From assembly GCA_050287605.1 (NCBI GenBank), contig JBNKCG010000037.1, positions 5,389 through 69,388 on the forward strand: 64,000 bases of DNA, written 5' to 3'. The notes below the pieces were generated by a model that had not been told where the DNA came from, ran no database searches, and saw only the letters and a program-made list of their open reading frames with translations. The stretch's first letter is position 1, and every line of letters begins with the position of its first letter. Shown here piece after piece: positions 5,091 through 26,148 of the stretch. The position numbers and the translations under genes are program-made. This DNA is from Gammaproteobacteria bacterium (GTDB lineage: Bacteria > Pseudomonadota > Gammaproteobacteria > QQUJ01).

Positions 5091-7991
5091 CTAGAGACTG
5101 GCGAGCAAATTCTCCGCCTCTTTGCGCTGCGCATCGCTGCCCTCTTTGGTGACCTCGTCGAGGATGTTGCGCGCGCCATCGGCATCACCCATATCGATAT
5201 AGGCCTTGGCCAGATCGAGCTTGGTTGCCACCATATCGGCTTCGCCGTCGCTCCCGCTCTCGTCCAGCGGTACGGCCGTGAAATCCAGGACCGCGGTCGA
5301 TTCGAGATCTTCGGTCGGTTCGGCGACGTGAGCGCCGCTGAGATCGGCTTCGTCCTCGTCGGGGACATCGGGAACCTCGAGCCCCATCCCGGTAATATCC
5401 CACTCGATGGAGAAATCGCGGTCTTCCGCCATCGAGGCATCGTCCGGCTCCACCGCCGCCGGCTCCTCGGCCTCGGCCGCCGGTGCGCCGGCTTCCTGGC
5501 GAAGTTTGTCGGTGTCGGTCTGGATGGTATCCAGTTCGAGATCGAAATCGGTCGAGCTGAGATCGGTGGCCGCGCTCGGCTCGTTGCCGAAATCGAGGTC
5601 CAGTCCGGAATCCTCCTCCTCGGCGGCAGTAGCCCCATCGAAGGCGAGATCCAGTCCCTCCTCCTCTTCGTCGTCCTGATCCGCGCCCAACAGCGTGGCA
5701 TCGAATTCCAACGCCTGCGACGGCTCACCCTCGATCTCGGGCAGCTCAAGCTCAGCTTCCTCTTCCGCCTCACCTTCACCGAGGTCAAAATCGAAATCCA
5801 GGCCTTGGTCATCCTCAGCCGCGGCTTCGGCATCCGCTTTCGCCTCGACGGCCCTTGCATCGAATCCGCCCATGTCGAATTCCACGCTCATGTCGTCATC
5901 GTCGGAGACCGCGGCCTCGGACTCAGACTCGGCCTGCGCCGCTTCACCGAACGGATCGAAGTCGATCCCGGTGTCCAGCGCTCCCGGCGGCAGCGTACTT
6001 TCGGCATCTGCCATCATGCCCGACCCGCCGCCGAACAGCGGATTGCCCGGACAGAGATCCTGGCCCATGAGCTGCAGCTTGTCCCACTCGGCGCCGCCGG
6101 CCGCCTGCAGTTCGCCGTGCACCTCTTCCACGACCGCCTCGAAGGCTTCACGGTCACGGGTGGCAAAATAGACCTCGAGAAGCTTGCCCTTCAGATCGGT
6201 GCGATCCGGGTGCTCTTCGAGCGTGCCCTTGATCAGCTCCTCGGCCTGCTGATAGCGTCCGTAGGCGAGGTAGACGTCTGCCTCGGCGATTACCTGCTCG
6301 ACGCCGCCCTTCTCCTCGTCGGACGCACGCGGCTCCTCTGCCTCAGGCTCATCGAAATCGGCGACCTCCATGGCTTCCGCGGCTGCCAAGATGTCGTCGT
6401 CGAGCACGACACCCTCCGCCCCGCCGTCATCGTCGGCAAAGGCGGTGCTGAAATCGGACGGTTGCGCCGCACGATCGCCACGGTGACGCACCATGAAGAA
6501 CAACAACAGCACCAGCAACAGCACGCCGCCGCCCACCGCGCCGAGCATGACCGGATCTCCCATCAGGATACCCAGCAGGTAGTCGCCGAAGCCTTTGGAG
6601 CTGGGTGCGGGCGCCGGGACCGGCTGCGGTGCGGGCGCGGGGGGAGTTGGTGTCGCTGCCTGGGGCGGCGGACTGGCCGCCTCGCCTTGCGTCGTCTCGG
6701 CCGCGGGCGCAGGCTGCTCGGCAGCGGGGGCCGCCTCGGAGCTGGCCGTCTCAGGCATCGCGGGCTCGGTTGCCGATGCGGCGGGCGTCTCCGTCGGCGC
6801 CGGCTCCGCGGCGGCAGGGGCGGATTCCGTCATCGCCGGCGCAGCCGCTTCCGCAGGGGTACCCTGCGCGCCTTCCTGCGCCTGCTTCAGCTGTGCCTGC
6901 AACGCGGCAAGTTCGTCGACCTTCAGCGTCACCATACGCTGCATGTCCGCCAGCTTCTCTTCCAGTTCGGAGACCTGGTTACGCAGCTCTTCGTTCTCCA
7001 GCCGCCGCGCTTCGGCCGCCTCCTTGGCTAGCGCCAGTTCGTGGTCCAGCCCGCCGGCTCCGCCGCCTGCGGCCTGTTCGCTGCCGGCGCCCCCACCCTC
7101 GGCGCCATCCTCGCTCTTGGGTGCCACCACCTCCAGGCGCGGTTGGGGTGCGGAAGCCATGGCCCCGGAATCGCCGCTCCCCGCGACGCGCTGCTGGCGA
7201 TAGGTCCGCCACTCGGCCACCTGGCGTCGTACCTCGGCGACGGCCTCCGCCTGATCGACGCTGAGCGCCTCCTGGGCGCTCGGGATGCGCAGCACGTAAC
7301 CCTCTTTCAACAAGTTGATGTTGTCGTTGATGAAGGCGTCGGGATTGGCGCGCAGGTAGGCCAGCATCGCCTGTTGTTCGCTCACCGACGCGCCGGCGAG
7401 CGTATCGCGCGCGATGGTCAGGAGATTGTCACCGCGGCGCACGCGATATTCGTCGGCTGCCGCCGGCATCATCCGCGTCGCGGGCATGGCGCGCGGCATG
7501 GTGGTCGATTGGGTCGGCGTCGCCGGCATCGTGGACTGCATAGGGGCCATCTGCGGGGGAGCCGCTGTGGGAGCCTGCACCGCCGGGGCGGCTTCGCGGG
7601 TTACGACGGGGGGATCCAGCAGCAGTGTGTACTCGCGCAGCAGACGGCCGTTCGGCCATTCAACCTTGAGCAGAAAACTGACGAAGGGCTCGCGAAACGC
7701 CTCCTTGGTGGTGATTTTGACGATGGTCTTGTCACCGCGCTGCGCGGTGGCGAAATTGAGACTGGCCAGGATAAAGGGACGATCGAGCCCGGCCTGTTCG
7801 AACTCTTCCCGCGACGCCAAGTTGACGCGCAGCTTTTCCAGGTCGCCGGGTTCCACGGAGCGCAATTCAACCTCAGCGTCCAACGGTTCGTTCAGTCGCG
7901 AATGTAGCGTGATTGCGCCGAGTCCGAGGGCGTGCGCGCCAGCGATGGGCAACAACGCAATCGCCAACGCCAACAACAGCTTCCGAAACAT
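5091..7991 (-). CDS. fimV: FimV-family peptidoglycan-binding protein (type IV pilus assembly / polar landmark), start at MFRKLLL
   Basis: Signal peptide, then a LysM motif (YRVRRGDNLLTIARD...LLKEGYVLRIP). Has a central Ala/Pro/Glu-rich low-complexity region, a single TM segment (LLGILMGDPVMLGAVGGGVLLLVLLLFF), a very acidic repeat region and the conserved FimV C-terminal motif KLDLAKAYIDMGDADGARNILDEV. Position between asd and truA matches Pseudomonas. The ORF-track start at 8096 is an over-extension. Confidence 0.8.
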   Translation of the reverse strand: MFRKLLLALAIALLPIAGAHALGLGAITLHSRLNEPLDAEVELRSVEPGDLEKLRVNLASREEFEQAGLDRPFILASLNFATAQRGDKTIVKITTKEAFREPFVSFLLKVEWPNGRLLREYTLLLDPPVVTREAAPAVQAPTAAPPQMAPMQSTMPATPTQSTTMPRAMPATRMMPAAADEYRVRRGDNLLTIARDTLAGASVSEQQAMLAYLRANPDAFINDNINLLKEGYVLRIPSAQEALSVDQAEAVAEVRRQVAEWRTYRQQRVAGSGDSGAMASAPQPRLEVVAPKSEDGAEGGGAGSEQAAGGGAGGLDHELALAKEAAEARRLENEELRNQVSELEEKLADMQRMVTLKVDELAALQAQLKQAQEGAQGTPAEAAAPAMTESAPAAAEPAPTETPAASATEPAMPETASSEAAPAAEQPAPAAETTQGEAASPPPQAATPTPPAPAPQPVPAPAPSSKGFGDYLLGILMGDPVMLGAVGGGVLLLVLLLFFMVRHRGDRAAQPSDFSTAFADDDGGAEGVVLDDDILAAAEAMEVADFDEPEAEEPRASDEEKGGVEQVIAEADVYLAYGRYQQAEELIKGTLEEHPDRTDLKGKLLEVYFATRDREAFEAVVEEVHGELQAAGGAEWDKLQLMGQDLCPGNPLFGGGSGMMADAESTLPPGALDTGIDFDPFGEAAQAESESEAAVSDDDDMSVEFDMGGFDARAVEAKADAEAAAEDDQGLDFDFDLGEGEAEEEAELELPEIEGEPSQALEFDATLLGADQDDEEEEGLDLAFDGATAAEEEDSGLDLDFGNEPSAATDLSSTDFDLELDTIQTDTDKLRQEAGAPAAEAEEPAAVEPDDASMAEDRDFSIEWDITGMGLEVPDVPDEDEADLSGAHVAEPTEDLESTAVLDFTAVPLDESGSDGEADMVATKLDLAKAYIDMGDADGARNILDEVTKEGSDAQRKEAENLLASL

Positions 7992-8240
7992 GGTCACTCC
8001 CTTTTTTGCGATGTCTCGGCCCCGCTGCATGGGCGGAACCCTTGTTCGGCCCCCACCGAATGCCGCGTCAGTTAGGCCCAATATTGGAGAATGCACTTTA
8101 TATTACTTATGTAACTATATTTTACAAATACCTTTTTACCAAAACTTGAGGAAATAGAACACCTTCAAATTGAGCTGCCCCTCCCCGACCGGGAGGCCGT
8201 GGGCATCGGCAGTCGACCCGCGACCCGGTGGGCTGGCGCC

Positions 8241-23829: not shown

Positions 23830-24176
23830 CCAACTGCCGCTTACTCCACTGGATACCCGTTGTTCCGCACAATTTCAACGACACCCATCACGCTTGCAAA
23901 CAAAATGCAATCGACGGAAGTGCGCTGTTATACCGACAGTCGGCCCCCGTTTGTCACGCCCTGAGCCGAACTGAAACCGTTGCAATACCTCCTCGGTCCG
24001 TCAAGCAATCAGTCAACCCGCTAGATTTCACGCGCATCAATCAGATGCGCTTTTGTACTAAAAATTGCTGCTCGACCGGTACCCGCAGAAACCCCGCAAG
24101 AAACGCCAGCGCTATCACACTCATGTCGTGAGCGAACCTCCAAATATACGCAAAACTTAATGCCATTTCCGCCATC

Positions 24177-24210
24177 GCGTTGCGAGTGTGATTTCACACG
24201 CAACGGCGCG
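24177..24210. promoter_or_regulatory. Imperfect palindrome in the long AT-rich leader of the repeat-lipoprotein gene
   Basis: cgcgttgcgagTGTGAttTCACAcgcaacggcgcg. The inner TGTGA/TCACA arms are flanked by gttgcg/cgcaac. Lies 75-105 bp upstream of the GTG start. Confidence 0.35.
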
Positions 24211-24282
24211 CACCGCGTAGCGATACGTTGCTATCCGAACAAGCTGGATGCACTCCAGTGATGTCGGCAAGAGGATGTAGAC

Positions 24283-26148
24283 GTGATCGCCACGACCGTG
24301 CTTAGAAGTACCACCCTGGTACGCATCGCCACCGTTGTACTGAGCAGTTCGCTACTGGCGGCCTGCCTCGAAGTGGATCCCCAACCCAACAACGATGCCA
24401 AAGCGTCCGCCATCGGCGTCCCTGCGGCAGCGCCGACCGTTACCCTGGCGGCAACGCCCGATTCGATCAGTTCGGGGTCGTCGACCACCTTGTCGTGGTC
24501 GAGCAGCAACGCCACCTCCTGCGCGGCCTCGGGCGGCTGGGCGGGCGACAAGTCCACCTCGGGCAACGAAACCAGCGCGGCGCTGACCAGCACCAGCACC
24601 TTCACCCTGACCTGCAGCGGCGAAGGCGGCAGCACCAGCGAATCGGTCACCGTCGCGGTCACGCCGGCCCTCGCGCCCGAAGTCACCTTAACCGCGAATC
24701 CTGCCACCGTGGTCTACGGAAGCCGATCAACGCTGCAGTGGGATTCCACCAATGCCGACTCCTGCACGGGGTCGGGCTCGTGGTCAGGAAGCAAAGGCAA
24801 AAAGGGCAGCGATCAAACCGACGCGCTCACATCCGACAGCACCTACACGCTGACCTGCAACGGCCCAGGCGGAAAGAAATCCAAATCGGTGACGGTAACC
24901 GTTACCGATCCACCTCCCGCTGCGCCCACGCTTTCACTGGATGCCAACCCCACGTCCATCGCCTATCAGGGCAGCACCACCGTCACCTGGTCGACGACCA
25001 ACGTCACCGGCTGCTCAGCCTCCGGCGCATGGTCCGGCAGCAAGGCCGGCAGCGGCAGCCAGAGCTTCAGCTCGCTAACCAGCGACCGCACTTACACGCT
25101 GGCGTGCACGGGCGACGGCGGCTCCGTCACCCGCTCGGTCACGGTTGCCGTCGCCGCGCCCCCTGCACCGACGCTGTCGCTGAGCGCCAACCCCACTTCC
25201 GTGGACTACAACAACACGTCGACGCTGAGCTGGACGACCAGCAACGCAACGTCGTGCAGCGCTTCGGGTGGATGGAGCGGCGCCAAGAGCACCGCAGGCG
25301 CAGAAAGCGTAGGCCCGCTCACCAGCAGCGCCAGCTACACGCTGACCTGCTCGGGCACCGGCGGCAGCATCTCCCGCACGGTGGCCGTGAACGTGGTGGC
25401 GCCGGCCGCCCCCGGCGTCAGTTTCTCCGCAAGCCCCACCTCCGTCGCAGCGGGCGACAGTGCGACGTTGACCTGGTCCGCGACCGACGCCACCAGTTGC
25501 AGCGCCTCCGGGGCGTGGTCAGGCGGCAAAGCGACGTCAGGCAGCGAGTCGGTGGGCCCCATCAGCTCCACCAGCACGTACACGCTGTCGTGCACCGGCC
25601 CCGGTGGCACCACCAGCCGCAGCCGTACGGTATCGGTTGCGGCCGCGCCCAGCGTAACGCTGAGCGCCAACCCCACCTCCGTACTCTCCGGTGGATCGAC
25701 GACGTTGACCTGGTCGACCTCCGGCGCCACCAGCTGCACGGCATCCGGCGCCTGGACCGGATCCAAGTCCACCTCCGGCAACCAGACGATCGCTTCGCTG
25801 ACCAGCGACAGCACCTTCACCCTTGCCTGCACGGGGACGGGAGGCACCACGACGCGCTCGGCGACCGTCACCATTACCACCGCCTCTGCACGCTCGGTGC
25901 AAATCTCCTGGGATGCACCCACCACGCGTGCCGACGGGTCAACTCTCACCAACCTGGCGGGTTTTCACATCCACTACGGAACCGCATCGGGCAACTACAC
26001 GCAGGTGATCAACGTGGATAATCCCAGCCTAGCGAGTTACACCATCGACAACCTGACGAACGGCACCTACTACTTCTCAGTCACGGCCTATGACACGGAT
26101 GCCTTGGAGAGCGATTTCTCCCTCGAGGTGAGCACGACGCTGAATTGA
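24283..26148 (+). CDS. Secreted lipoprotein with six tandem two-cysteine beta-sandwich repeats and a C-terminal fibronectin type III domain
   Basis: GTG start with RBS aagagga 7 nt upstream. Signal peptide with lipobox LAAC. Six repeats of about 76-82 aa with the consensus L.ANPTSV..G.STTL.WST.NATSC.ASGAWSGSK..SG..S...LTS..TYTL.CTG.GG...RSVTV.V. C-terminal FN3-like domain (VQISWDAPT...YYFSVTAYD). Confidence 0.8.
   Translation: MIATTVLRSTTLVRIATVVLSSSLLAACLEVDPQPNNDAKASAIGVPAAAPTVTLAATPDSISSGSSTTLSWSSSNATSCAASGGWAGDKSTSGNETSAALTSTSTFTLTCSGEGGSTSESVTVAVTPALAPEVTLTANPATVVYGSRSTLQWDSTNADSCTGSGSWSGSKGKKGSDQTDALTSDSTYTLTCNGPGGKKSKSVTVTVTDPPPAAPTLSLDANPTSIAYQGSTTVTWSTTNVTGCSASGAWSGSKAGSGSQSFSSLTSDRTYTLACTGDGGSVTRSVTVAVAAPPAPTLSLSANPTSVDYNNTSTLSWTTSNATSCSASGGWSGAKSTAGAESVGPLTSSASYTLTCSGTGGSISRTVAVNVVAPAAPGVSFSASPTSVAAGDSATLTWSATDATSCSASGAWSGGKATSGSESVGPISSTSTYTLSCTGPGGTTSRSRTVSVAAAPSVTLSANPTSVLSGGSTTLTWSTSGATSCTASGAWTGSKSTSGNQTIASLTSDSTFTLACTGTGGTTTRSATVTITTASARSVQISWDAPTTRADGSTLTNLAGFHIHYGTASGNYTQVINVDNPSLASYTIDNLTNGTYYFSVTAYDTDALESDFSLEVSTTLN
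24436..25899 (+). repeat. Six in-frame tandem repeats of about 225-250 bp (diverged), encoding the repeat domains of the lipoprotein
   Basis: Periodicity visible in the translation. The opposite-strand and other-frame ORFs across this block (for example 25335..25952) are artefacts of the repeats. Confidence 0.75.

Follow-up and report, generated by a model that had tools for sequence, protein, structure and literature searches.

The gene at positions 24,283 to 26,148 of a 64,000-nt stretch of gammaproteobacterial DNA (contig JBNKCG010000037.1; hereafter the window) raises the question of what kind of protein carries six tandem cysteine-containing repeats behind a lipoprotein signal, and what such a protein may do at the cell envelope. 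An earlier note, made from the sequence alone, had proposed a surface-displayed adhesin or binding scaffold. We find that the 621-aa product of this open reading frame (ORF) is, by its sequence, a real and conserved bacterial envelope lipoprotein, whose lipidation is predicted. The functional interpretation that we favour, a lipid-anchored extracytoplasmic stalk-and-head protein in which a cysteine-stapled stalk holds a fibronectin type III (FN3) binding head, with a glycan or matrix component as a possible ligand, has in our judgement about an even chance of being correct.

On the forward strand, the described span coincides exactly with the 621-aa ORF of the ORF list. Direct reading of the sequence identifies a GTG start codon, with a Shine-Dalgarno-like AGAGGA (24,270–24,275, +) standing 7 nt before it. 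The G+C content at third codon positions (GC3) is 0.82, on par with that of the adjacent genes, which indicates that this frame is the correct one. Three further Arg/Gly-rich ORFs overlap the gene, one of 508 aa in another frame (24,495–26,021, +) and two in antisense orientation, of 158 aa (24,231–24,707, −) and 205 aa (25,335–25,952, −); these are composition by-products of a high-GC, periodic coding sequence and not genes.

The protein's N-terminus (MIATTVLRSTTLVRIATVVLSSSLLAAC) contains the basic residues R8 and R14, a hydrophobic core and the lipobox L-A-A-C ending at Cys28, and all elements of a lipoprotein signal, namely the lipobox pattern [LVI][ASTVI][GAS]C, a basic n-region and a hydrophobic h-region, are present. 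The predicted signal peptide (aa 1–27) together with Cys28, the predicted acylation site, occupies 24,283–24,366 (+). Cys28 is invariant in all 13 aligned sequences, and each of the 12 homologues among them places the aligned cysteine in a lipobox-like context behind a signal-peptide-like N-terminus, in agreement with the lipobox that had been read from the sequence before. The following tether of ~22 aa (aa 29–50, LEVDPQPNNDAKASAIGVPAAA; 24,367–24,432, +) is poorly conserved and predicted to be disordered and flexible, with a predicted local distance difference test score (pLDDT) below 50 for residues 1–46 of the full-length model. Serine and threonine account for 230 of the 621 residues (37 %), in line with the earlier description of the repeats as Ser/Thr-rich.

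Cutting the units 29 residues before each first cysteine yields six tandem repeats on the forward strand: repeat 1 (aa 51–131, Cys80/Cys111; 24,433–24,675), repeat 2 (aa 132–214, Cys161/Cys192; 24,676–24,924), repeat 3 (aa 215–295, Cys244/Cys275; 24,925–25,167), repeat 4 (aa 296–376, Cys325/Cys356; 25,168–25,410), repeat 5 (aa 377–455, Cys406/Cys437; 25,411–25,647) and repeat 6 (aa 456–536, Cys485/Cys516; 25,648–25,890). All are delineated by sequence and by the family profile, together with the full-length model for five of them and a structure model of its own for repeat 4 (see below). The count of six given in the earlier note stands, and the unit length stated with it (76–82 aa) is slightly off, the units measuring 79–83 aa. 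The two cysteines are 31 residues apart in all six repeats, and 20 columns are invariant across the copies, among them those in the NATSC.ASG.WSG..K and T(Y/F)TL.C.G.GG contexts, as expected from the fixed cysteine motifs quoted previously. Short linkers rich in Pro and Ala (PALAPE, DPPPAAP, AAPPAP, VAPAAP, AAAP) connect the modules. The family profile matches each window repeat with 89–99 bits (independent E-values of 1e-29 to 1e-32), and a search of the 64-kb window with this profile found no copies beyond these six. The N-A-T preceding the first cysteine was considered as an N-glycosylation sequon and rejected, as N-x-S/T occurs in only three of the six window repeats and the Asn is 71 % conserved in the family.

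Pairwise identity among the copies is 47–64 % at the protein level and 55–66 % at the DNA level, and Tandem Repeats Finder detects no ~243-nt period in the repeat DNA; therefore, the duplication is not recent. The homologues lead to the same view. A search of 5.8 billion proteins returned more than 3,181 matches at E ≤ 1e-5, of which those with the same layout are 616–625 aa long and 43–77 % identical to the window protein. In the five closest orthologues (56–77 % identity), repeats 2–6 find their best match in the same-numbered repeats, and repeats 3–6 are positionally orthologous in seven orthologues, down to 55 % identity; homologues at greater distance still have six repeats, but the positional signal is lost in them. 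This positional orthology implies that the six-module array arose before these lineages and escaped homogenisation, and the array, judging by these comparisons, is old and stable. The claim that the repeats are diverged and not the product of a recent duplication is thereby borne out at all three levels, by DNA identity, by the missing period and by orthology of repeats 2–6.

The same comparisons bear on whether the ORF is functional at all. It could be argued that it is an artefact of composition or of repeats, or else a pseudogene in decay, as the long other-frame and antisense ORFs that overlap it and the occurrence of an 83-aa FN3 fragment (P0319) as the sole cluster member in one 2.9-Mb genome might suggest. 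This interpretation is effectively refuted by conservation and retains a negligible probability: GC3 matches that of the neighbours, the 13-sequence alignment of intact homologues contains 104 invariant columns, including Cys28 and all 12 repeat cysteines, synteny is conserved, an independent assembly holds the exact window protein, and confidence in the structure models is high. Ahead of the gene, the upstream order aroC-hemN-prmB-STAS-ettA-DUF815 of the window recurs in the 68 % and 55 % orthologues, and the full-length homologues are intact, in contrast to the frame-shifted pseudogenes in relatives that the earlier note had named as grounds for rejection.

A separate observation concerns the cluster of one orthologue (P0007), whose 90 % cluster is represented in the 2.9-Mb genome only by the FN3-covering 83-aa ORF (P0319, QKK11962.1) and in other assemblies by fragments of 90 and 226 aa (P0321 and P0322). 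These fragments could reflect a frameshift, an assembly error or a genuine truncation.

The earlier note had been unable to assign the repeat to a family, and this holds for the domain libraries. A Pfam search of the 621-aa protein gave nothing significant over the repeats and reported only the C-terminal fn3, a Pfam search with repeat 4 alone returned no family at E ≤ 1, and NCBIfam gave no match over the 621 aa. The PKD models (PF00801, PF18911 and PF22352) do not match the window repeats even at E ≤ 10, Big_2 (PF02368) matches neither the protein nor any of 105 family repeats, and sequence and profile searches of the PDB returned weak FN3 and Ig (immunoglobulin) noise only, with nothing covering the repeat. 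A match to a C-terminal domain of the type IX secretion system (T9SS) was rejected, since the 14 bits scored with the NCBIfam T9SS sortase model (E 0.039) lie below its cut-off of 40 and since the host bacteria belong to the Gammaproteobacteria. In these library searches, the repeats accordingly match no characterised family.

Faint similarities appear across the wider family. When the 105 diverse family repeats are scanned singly, 14 show weak matches to K319L-like_PKD (PF22352; best E 3.6e-5), and scattered matches to Ig_2, Big_7, CARDB and others occur. Summed over the repeats of one relative (P0100), K319L-like_PKD reaches 49.5 bits, covering the C-terminal half of the model only, and cumulative sub-threshold I-set or Ig_2 matches are confined to a few relatives. 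The family consensus reads ...LxWSSxNAtSCxASGxWSGxK... and lacks a WDFGDG-type motif.

Structure prediction is more informative. From a 105-sequence alignment, AlphaFold2 models repeat 4 as an all-beta domain of eight strands with a mean pLDDT of 97.4 and a predicted template modelling score (pTM) of 0.83, which substantiates the Ig-like look noticed before. In a Foldseek comparison of this single-repeat model with the PDB, no match falls below E 1e-3; the closest fold is the PKD domain of the archaeal surface-layer protein 1l0q (template modelling (TM) score 0.72), further neighbours being the Deinococcus HPI S-layer protein, the PKD domains of ColG, GhpA and the Ig domains of Fc receptor, CD4 and LILR. 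Among predicted viral structures (BFVD), cyanophage virion proteins superpose considerably better, with TM-scores of 0.87–0.88 and a root-mean-square deviation of 1.2–1.3 Å over 79 columns at 25–32 % identity, and a 'PKD domain containing' phage protein is also found among the matches. A single-sequence search of IMG/VR detected relatives with 37–41 % identity on two viral contigs (L098, 3001–3252, and L099, 3001–3225). On these grounds, we assign the repeat to the Ig-like beta-sandwiches as a PKD-like type without a dedicated Pfam or NCBIfam model; it fails formal PKD membership, having neither a hidden Markov model match nor the WDFGDG motif.

The full-length AlphaFold2 model (mean pLDDT 84.7) contains seven confident beta domains behind the disordered residues 1–46, and its pTM of 0.35 indicates no fixed packing between the domains. 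Structural matches of the whole chain are best with extended tandem-Ig arrays (GhpA, E 1e-17 at 19 % identity; contactins; titin); the TM-scores of these matches are low (~0.2), so that the likeness is one of domain type only.

The cysteine pair is the most constant feature of the family. Among 831 repeats of 120 proteins, the first cysteine is present in all 831 and both cysteines in 820, and only four other cysteines occur in match columns. In the single-repeat model, the cysteines lie in strands 29–34 and 55–63, in a register that places residues 30 and 61 opposite each other and has Ala32, Leu59 and Tyr57 on the same face. These strands are the equivalents of C and F, which lie side by side within one sheet in Ig/PKD sandwiches. 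The modelled register thus suggests that the pair probably forms a buried intra-sheet C–F disulfide and not the classical B–F inter-sheet bond of Ig domains. Of the disulfide-stabilised Ig fold for which a single-repeat model had been called, the Ig-like beta-sandwich is therefore recovered, but the cysteines are predicted in strands C and F instead of B and F.

The array is followed by the C-terminal FN3 domain (aa 537–621; 25,891–26,148 including the stop codon, +), which is indicated by Pfam, weak PDB matches, the model and stand-alone homologues. Over aa ~529–614, the match to Pfam fn3 (PF00041) exceeds the cut-off of 25 bits marginally, at 25.2 bits, and PF00041 is also the precomputed Pfam annotation of orthologues. 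The PDB sequences that match best come from the FN3 domains in integrin beta-4, neogenin and DCC (E 0.003–0.2), and the full-length model shows beta strands forming a sandwich over aa 537–620, with block pLDDT values of 69–89 over aa 531–620. The fn3 score and the modelled sandwich together corroborate the terminal FN3-like domain proposed at the outset. When searched alone, the last 87 aa retrieve 66 proteins with listed lengths of 67–152 aa. Ten of these were inspected (127–152 aa), and eight of the ten are built from a lipobox (ALSGCGGG) and a single FN3 with 52–61 % identity to the window head, with a Gly/Ser/Ala-rich linker in between; these eight open with MTNAKRGRG or a close variant and, where the source names them, belong to Steroidobacteraceae.

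The repeat itself is widespread. A profile scan of 1.84 billion cluster representatives found it in 31,866 proteins at E ≤ 1e-3; at E ≤ 1e-10, the number is 16,446. All of the 120 best matches contain 5–12 copies, and the largest carrier seen (P0121, 4,314 aa) combines 47 copies with N-terminal Malectin (carbohydrate-binding) domains. Most of the genomic carriers belong to uncultured Gammaproteobacteria (Steroidobacteraceae, Nevskia, Stagnimonas, Hydrocarboniphaga, Panacagrimonas), with many Patescibacteria and others also among them. Where a source provides a protein name, this is 'fibronectin type III domain-containing', 'hypothetical' or an unspecific wrong label, 'trimeric autotransporter adhesin' being one example. 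The layout of lipobox, n repeats and an FN3 at the extreme C-terminus is found in 51 of the 121 top proteins, with n = 5–10, and the same FN3 alone on a lipobox represents the n = 0 form. Another group of the 121 has an extra ~340-aa region ahead of the repeats, which in relatives with that layout (P0075, P0092 and P0105) contains a GDSL/SGNH esterase domain. Fusion partners in the family comprise PF13204/PF12904 (glycoside-hydrolase-like), GH5, SGNH esterase, RHS and Malectin. In this layout, the anchor and the terminal FN3 are thus the constant parts, and the stalk differs from lineage to lineage; that of the window lineage is fixed at six modules.

These results describe a confidently foldable cysteine-pair domain that recurs in tens of thousands of protein clusters, is particularly frequent among uncultured Gammaproteobacteria of soil and freshwater and among Patescibacteria, is also present in cyanophage virion proteins, and is without a Pfam or NCBIfam model; a curated model of the repeat would annotate many large surface proteins. 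Moreover, the occurrence of one FN3 head on 0 or 5–10 modules represents a natural experiment on reach versus function.

How might such a protein work? The lipoprotein would be exported by the Sec pathway and acylated at the lipobox Cys28, and residue +2, which is Leu and not Asp, would direct it to the outer membrane according to the Lol rule of E. coli. Beyond a presumably disordered tether of ~22 aa, the six sequential cysteine pairs would become oxidised in the periplasm, and the six PKD-like, Ig-like modules and the FN3 domain would be arranged as beads on a string. Ig and FN3 modules measure ~3.5–4.5 nm per domain, and seven such domains would give a semi-rigid rod of ~25–30 nm. The C-terminal FN3 would form the distal head and most likely the binding part, and the stalk would mainly set its reach, given that relatives carry the same head on 0 or 5–10 modules. 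Candidate ligands would be the exopolysaccharide or matrix of the cell itself, or another glycan surface; they are suggested by family members that are encoded in polysaccharide-synthesis loci or fused to glycoside-hydrolase-like, esterase or malectin domains.

The residue at +2, not being Asp, would equally suit a classical surface adhesin, that is, a lipoprotein flipped to the cell surface whose Ig-like array and FN3 tip bind external surfaces or cells, like LigA/LigB or TasL. Such a role would be in keeping with the Lig-like build of lipobox and tandem Ig-like repeats (PMC2892007), with the likeness to TasL, in which C-terminal FN3-like repeats are needed for cell–cell contact (PMC9040878), and with the whole-protein model, which best matches extended tandem-Ig filaments such as GhpA. 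However, no surface-export system or partner gene is found near the gene in the window, and its six repeats hold fixed positions across the 55–77 % orthologues, whereas adhesin arrays are often variable and homogenised. Neither Big_2 nor any other adhesin domain model is matched, and the carriers are environmental, uncultured Gammaproteobacteria without host context. We therefore consider an adhesin rather unlikely; a periplasmic or a matrix/polysaccharide-associated role is just as possible as that of a surface adhesin.

The constant number of modules in the lineage of the window could also point inwards, to a periplasmic spacer or tether of fixed length in which the six modules act as a ruler and the FN3 contacts peptidoglycan, the other membrane or an envelope machine. 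Six modules within 616–625 aa are indeed kept in 13 homologues, of which the seven closest retain most repeat positions and the five most distant do not; the neighbourhood is one of housekeeping genes, with the envelope genes msrPQ adjacent and bamC ~8 kb away, and disulfides suit the periplasm. Against such a ruler, the family range of 0 or 5–10 modules, at an assumed ~4 nm each, is too wide for a single periplasmic distance, and a rod of ~25 nm, reckoned in the same way, would together with its tether span at least the typical periplasmic width. The repeat is furthermore abundant in Patescibacteria, in which an outer membrane is not expected, and also occurs in phage virion proteins. Overall, a periplasmic spacer appears improbable.

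Returning to the stalk-and-head protein, the evidence for a glycan or matrix ligand comes from the loci of relatives. In Steroidobacteraceae metagenome-assembled genomes, stand-alone FN3 lipoproteins of 134–140 aa (L089, 8001–8405; L090, 751–1155; L091, 8001–8423), in which an FN3 with 52–58 % identity to the window FN3 tail follows a Gly/Ser linker, are divergent from a polysaccharide cluster of Asn_synthase, Bac_transf, PMT_2, flippase and Wzy_C genes; downstream of them, genes for a 169–187-aa protein (with an FN3 match in L091) and a ~640-aa protein (with DUF4382 in L089 and L090) are located. Three relatives with 9–11 repeats (P0001, P0012 and P0020) adjoin a Bac_transf initiating transferase and have GT2, epimerase and sulfotransferase genes nearby, and a fourth (P0023) lies within a GT2/PMT_2/epimerase/Asn_synthase/flippase cluster, beside a protein with DUF5060 and Collagen_bind_2 domains.

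Several observations weigh against this interpretation. Around the window gene and its close orthologues, no polysaccharide genes are found and the neighbours are housekeeping genes, and the loci of P0027, P0031 and P0054 likewise have no polysaccharide neighbours. A polysaccharide-family gene within 8 kb is present at 12 of 79 genomic loci, which is about twofold over a rough expectation from general gene counts, and several of the positive loci are probably orthologous to one another, the link being in part one of shared ancestry. In addition, conservation of the FN3 head does not clearly exceed that of the stalk repeats; it is about that of repeats 3–6, with repeats 1 and 2 and the tether less conserved. 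The link to glycan or matrix is thus a weak one, to be taken as a lead and not as a result, and a glycan as the ligand, taken alone, is a tentative and somewhat unlikely proposition. If the link to exopolysaccharide loci is true, it points to an unstudied matrix-associated lipoprotein.

A bolder extension of the stalk-and-head model would see here an unrecognised, length-tunable envelope component from an uncatalogued family of PKD-like stalks (>31,000 clusters in Gammaproteobacteria, Patescibacteria and phages), whose head docks on exopolysaccharide or capsule or on the machinery of its synthesis and whose stalk length sets the distance of the polymer layer from the membrane; we regard this as a long shot. 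As a side observation, the divergent neighbour of the six-repeat-plus-FN3 homologue P0027 (45 % identity) encodes a weak PEP-CTERM-domain protein (L086, 6645–7328, −), which may be a further, loose link to exosortase/exopolysaccharide biology.

As to the genomic surroundings, the window is a housekeeping stretch of ~64 % GC from a Gammaproteobacterium, containing accD, trpAB, truA, fimV, asd, leuBDC, aroC, hemN, prmB, ettA, the lipoprotein gene, msrQP, FAH, purL, bamC, bcp and an RND pump. A terminator-like hairpin (24,032–24,050) separates the upstream DUF815 ATPase gene from the lipoprotein gene, and msrQ is convergent on the 3′ side, the stop codon (26,148) and the end of the msrQ ORF (26,157) being 8 nt apart; the stretch between these two ends showed no terminator-like hairpin. 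The gene looks monocistronic, and its neighbours therefore give no hint as to function; an operon-based inference was rejected because of the upstream hairpin and the convergent msrQ. The ettA-DUF815 linkage is the only conserved one, is absent at the distant six-repeat homologue P0027, and looks like inherited synteny.

Two non-coding blocks upstream of the gene (24,120–24,210) are conserved with the 68 % orthologue. One of them contains an inverted repeat (CGTTGCGAGTG / CACACGCAACG; 24,178–24,205, +) with the core GTGTGA-TT-TCACAC, which is not conserved in the 55 % orthologue and includes the sole exact GTGTGANNTCAC site of the window. It may be an operator or regulator site or a hairpin of the 5′ untranslated region. 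Its TGTGA..TCACA arrangement was considered as a CRP site and rejected, as the spacer is 2 nt instead of 6 and the motif occurs once. Rfam gave no match in the whole window. Elsewhere in the window, a FimV-like protein of 1,001 aa (FimV_N and TPR; 5,091–8,096, −) is encoded among accD, trpA, trpB, truA, asd and leuBDC, which is consistent with a Gammaproteobacterium bearing type IV pili.

Among known systems, the repeat comes closest in kind to PKD domains, which are likewise ~80-aa beta-sandwiches used as tandem extracellular modules (e.g. 1l0q; ColG 2y72 and 4tn9), and its F–G segment 'TYTLTC.G.GG....V.V.V' is similar to the PKD profile in the C-terminal half of the latter. A WDFGDG-type motif is a conserved feature of PKD domains; in its place, the repeat has C.ASG.WSG. 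The repeat also differs by its near-invariant cysteine pair, which is not known as a hallmark of PKD domains. Of the structural matches found for the single repeat, the closest are virion proteins of T4-like cyanophages (S-PM2 Q5GQB5 and S-RIM44 A0A1D7SEY9), in a comparison in which the phage-side structures are predictions as well; these are phage particle proteins and not lipoproteins. Aureispira GhpA and Deinococcus HPI share with the window protein the extended array of Ig-like beta-sandwiches at very different sizes, HPI (8cka) being the second PDB match of the single repeat (28 % identity). GhpA is secreted by a type IX system, and HPI forms a lattice.

At the level of the whole protein, Leptospira LigA/LigB, with 12–13 tandem Big_2 domains, are similar in having a lipobox, a long run of ~80–90-aa Ig-like repeats and a C-terminal part of another kind; the window protein differs from them in its non-Big_2 repeats, conserved cysteine pair, single FN3 tip and environmental hosts. 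The Lig proteins act as adhesins on the cell surface and bind to proteins of the extracellular matrix (PMC2892007). TasL of Vibrio fischeri is a putative outer-membrane lipoprotein without a Lol-avoidance signal, whose C-terminal FN3-like repeats are proposed to project and mediate contact (PMC9040878). It is likened to the window protein by its working principle and not by sequence homology, its gene of >10 kb lying in a type VI secretion system (T6SS) island, whereas the window gene measures 1.9 kb, has no T6SS context and encodes another type of repeat. With no Big_2 domains and no T6SS context, the window protein is a member of neither the Lig nor the TasL family. Taken together, envelope lipoproteins with tandem Ig-like modules are a familiar class, to which the present locus adds a large repeat family outside Pfam and NCBIfam.

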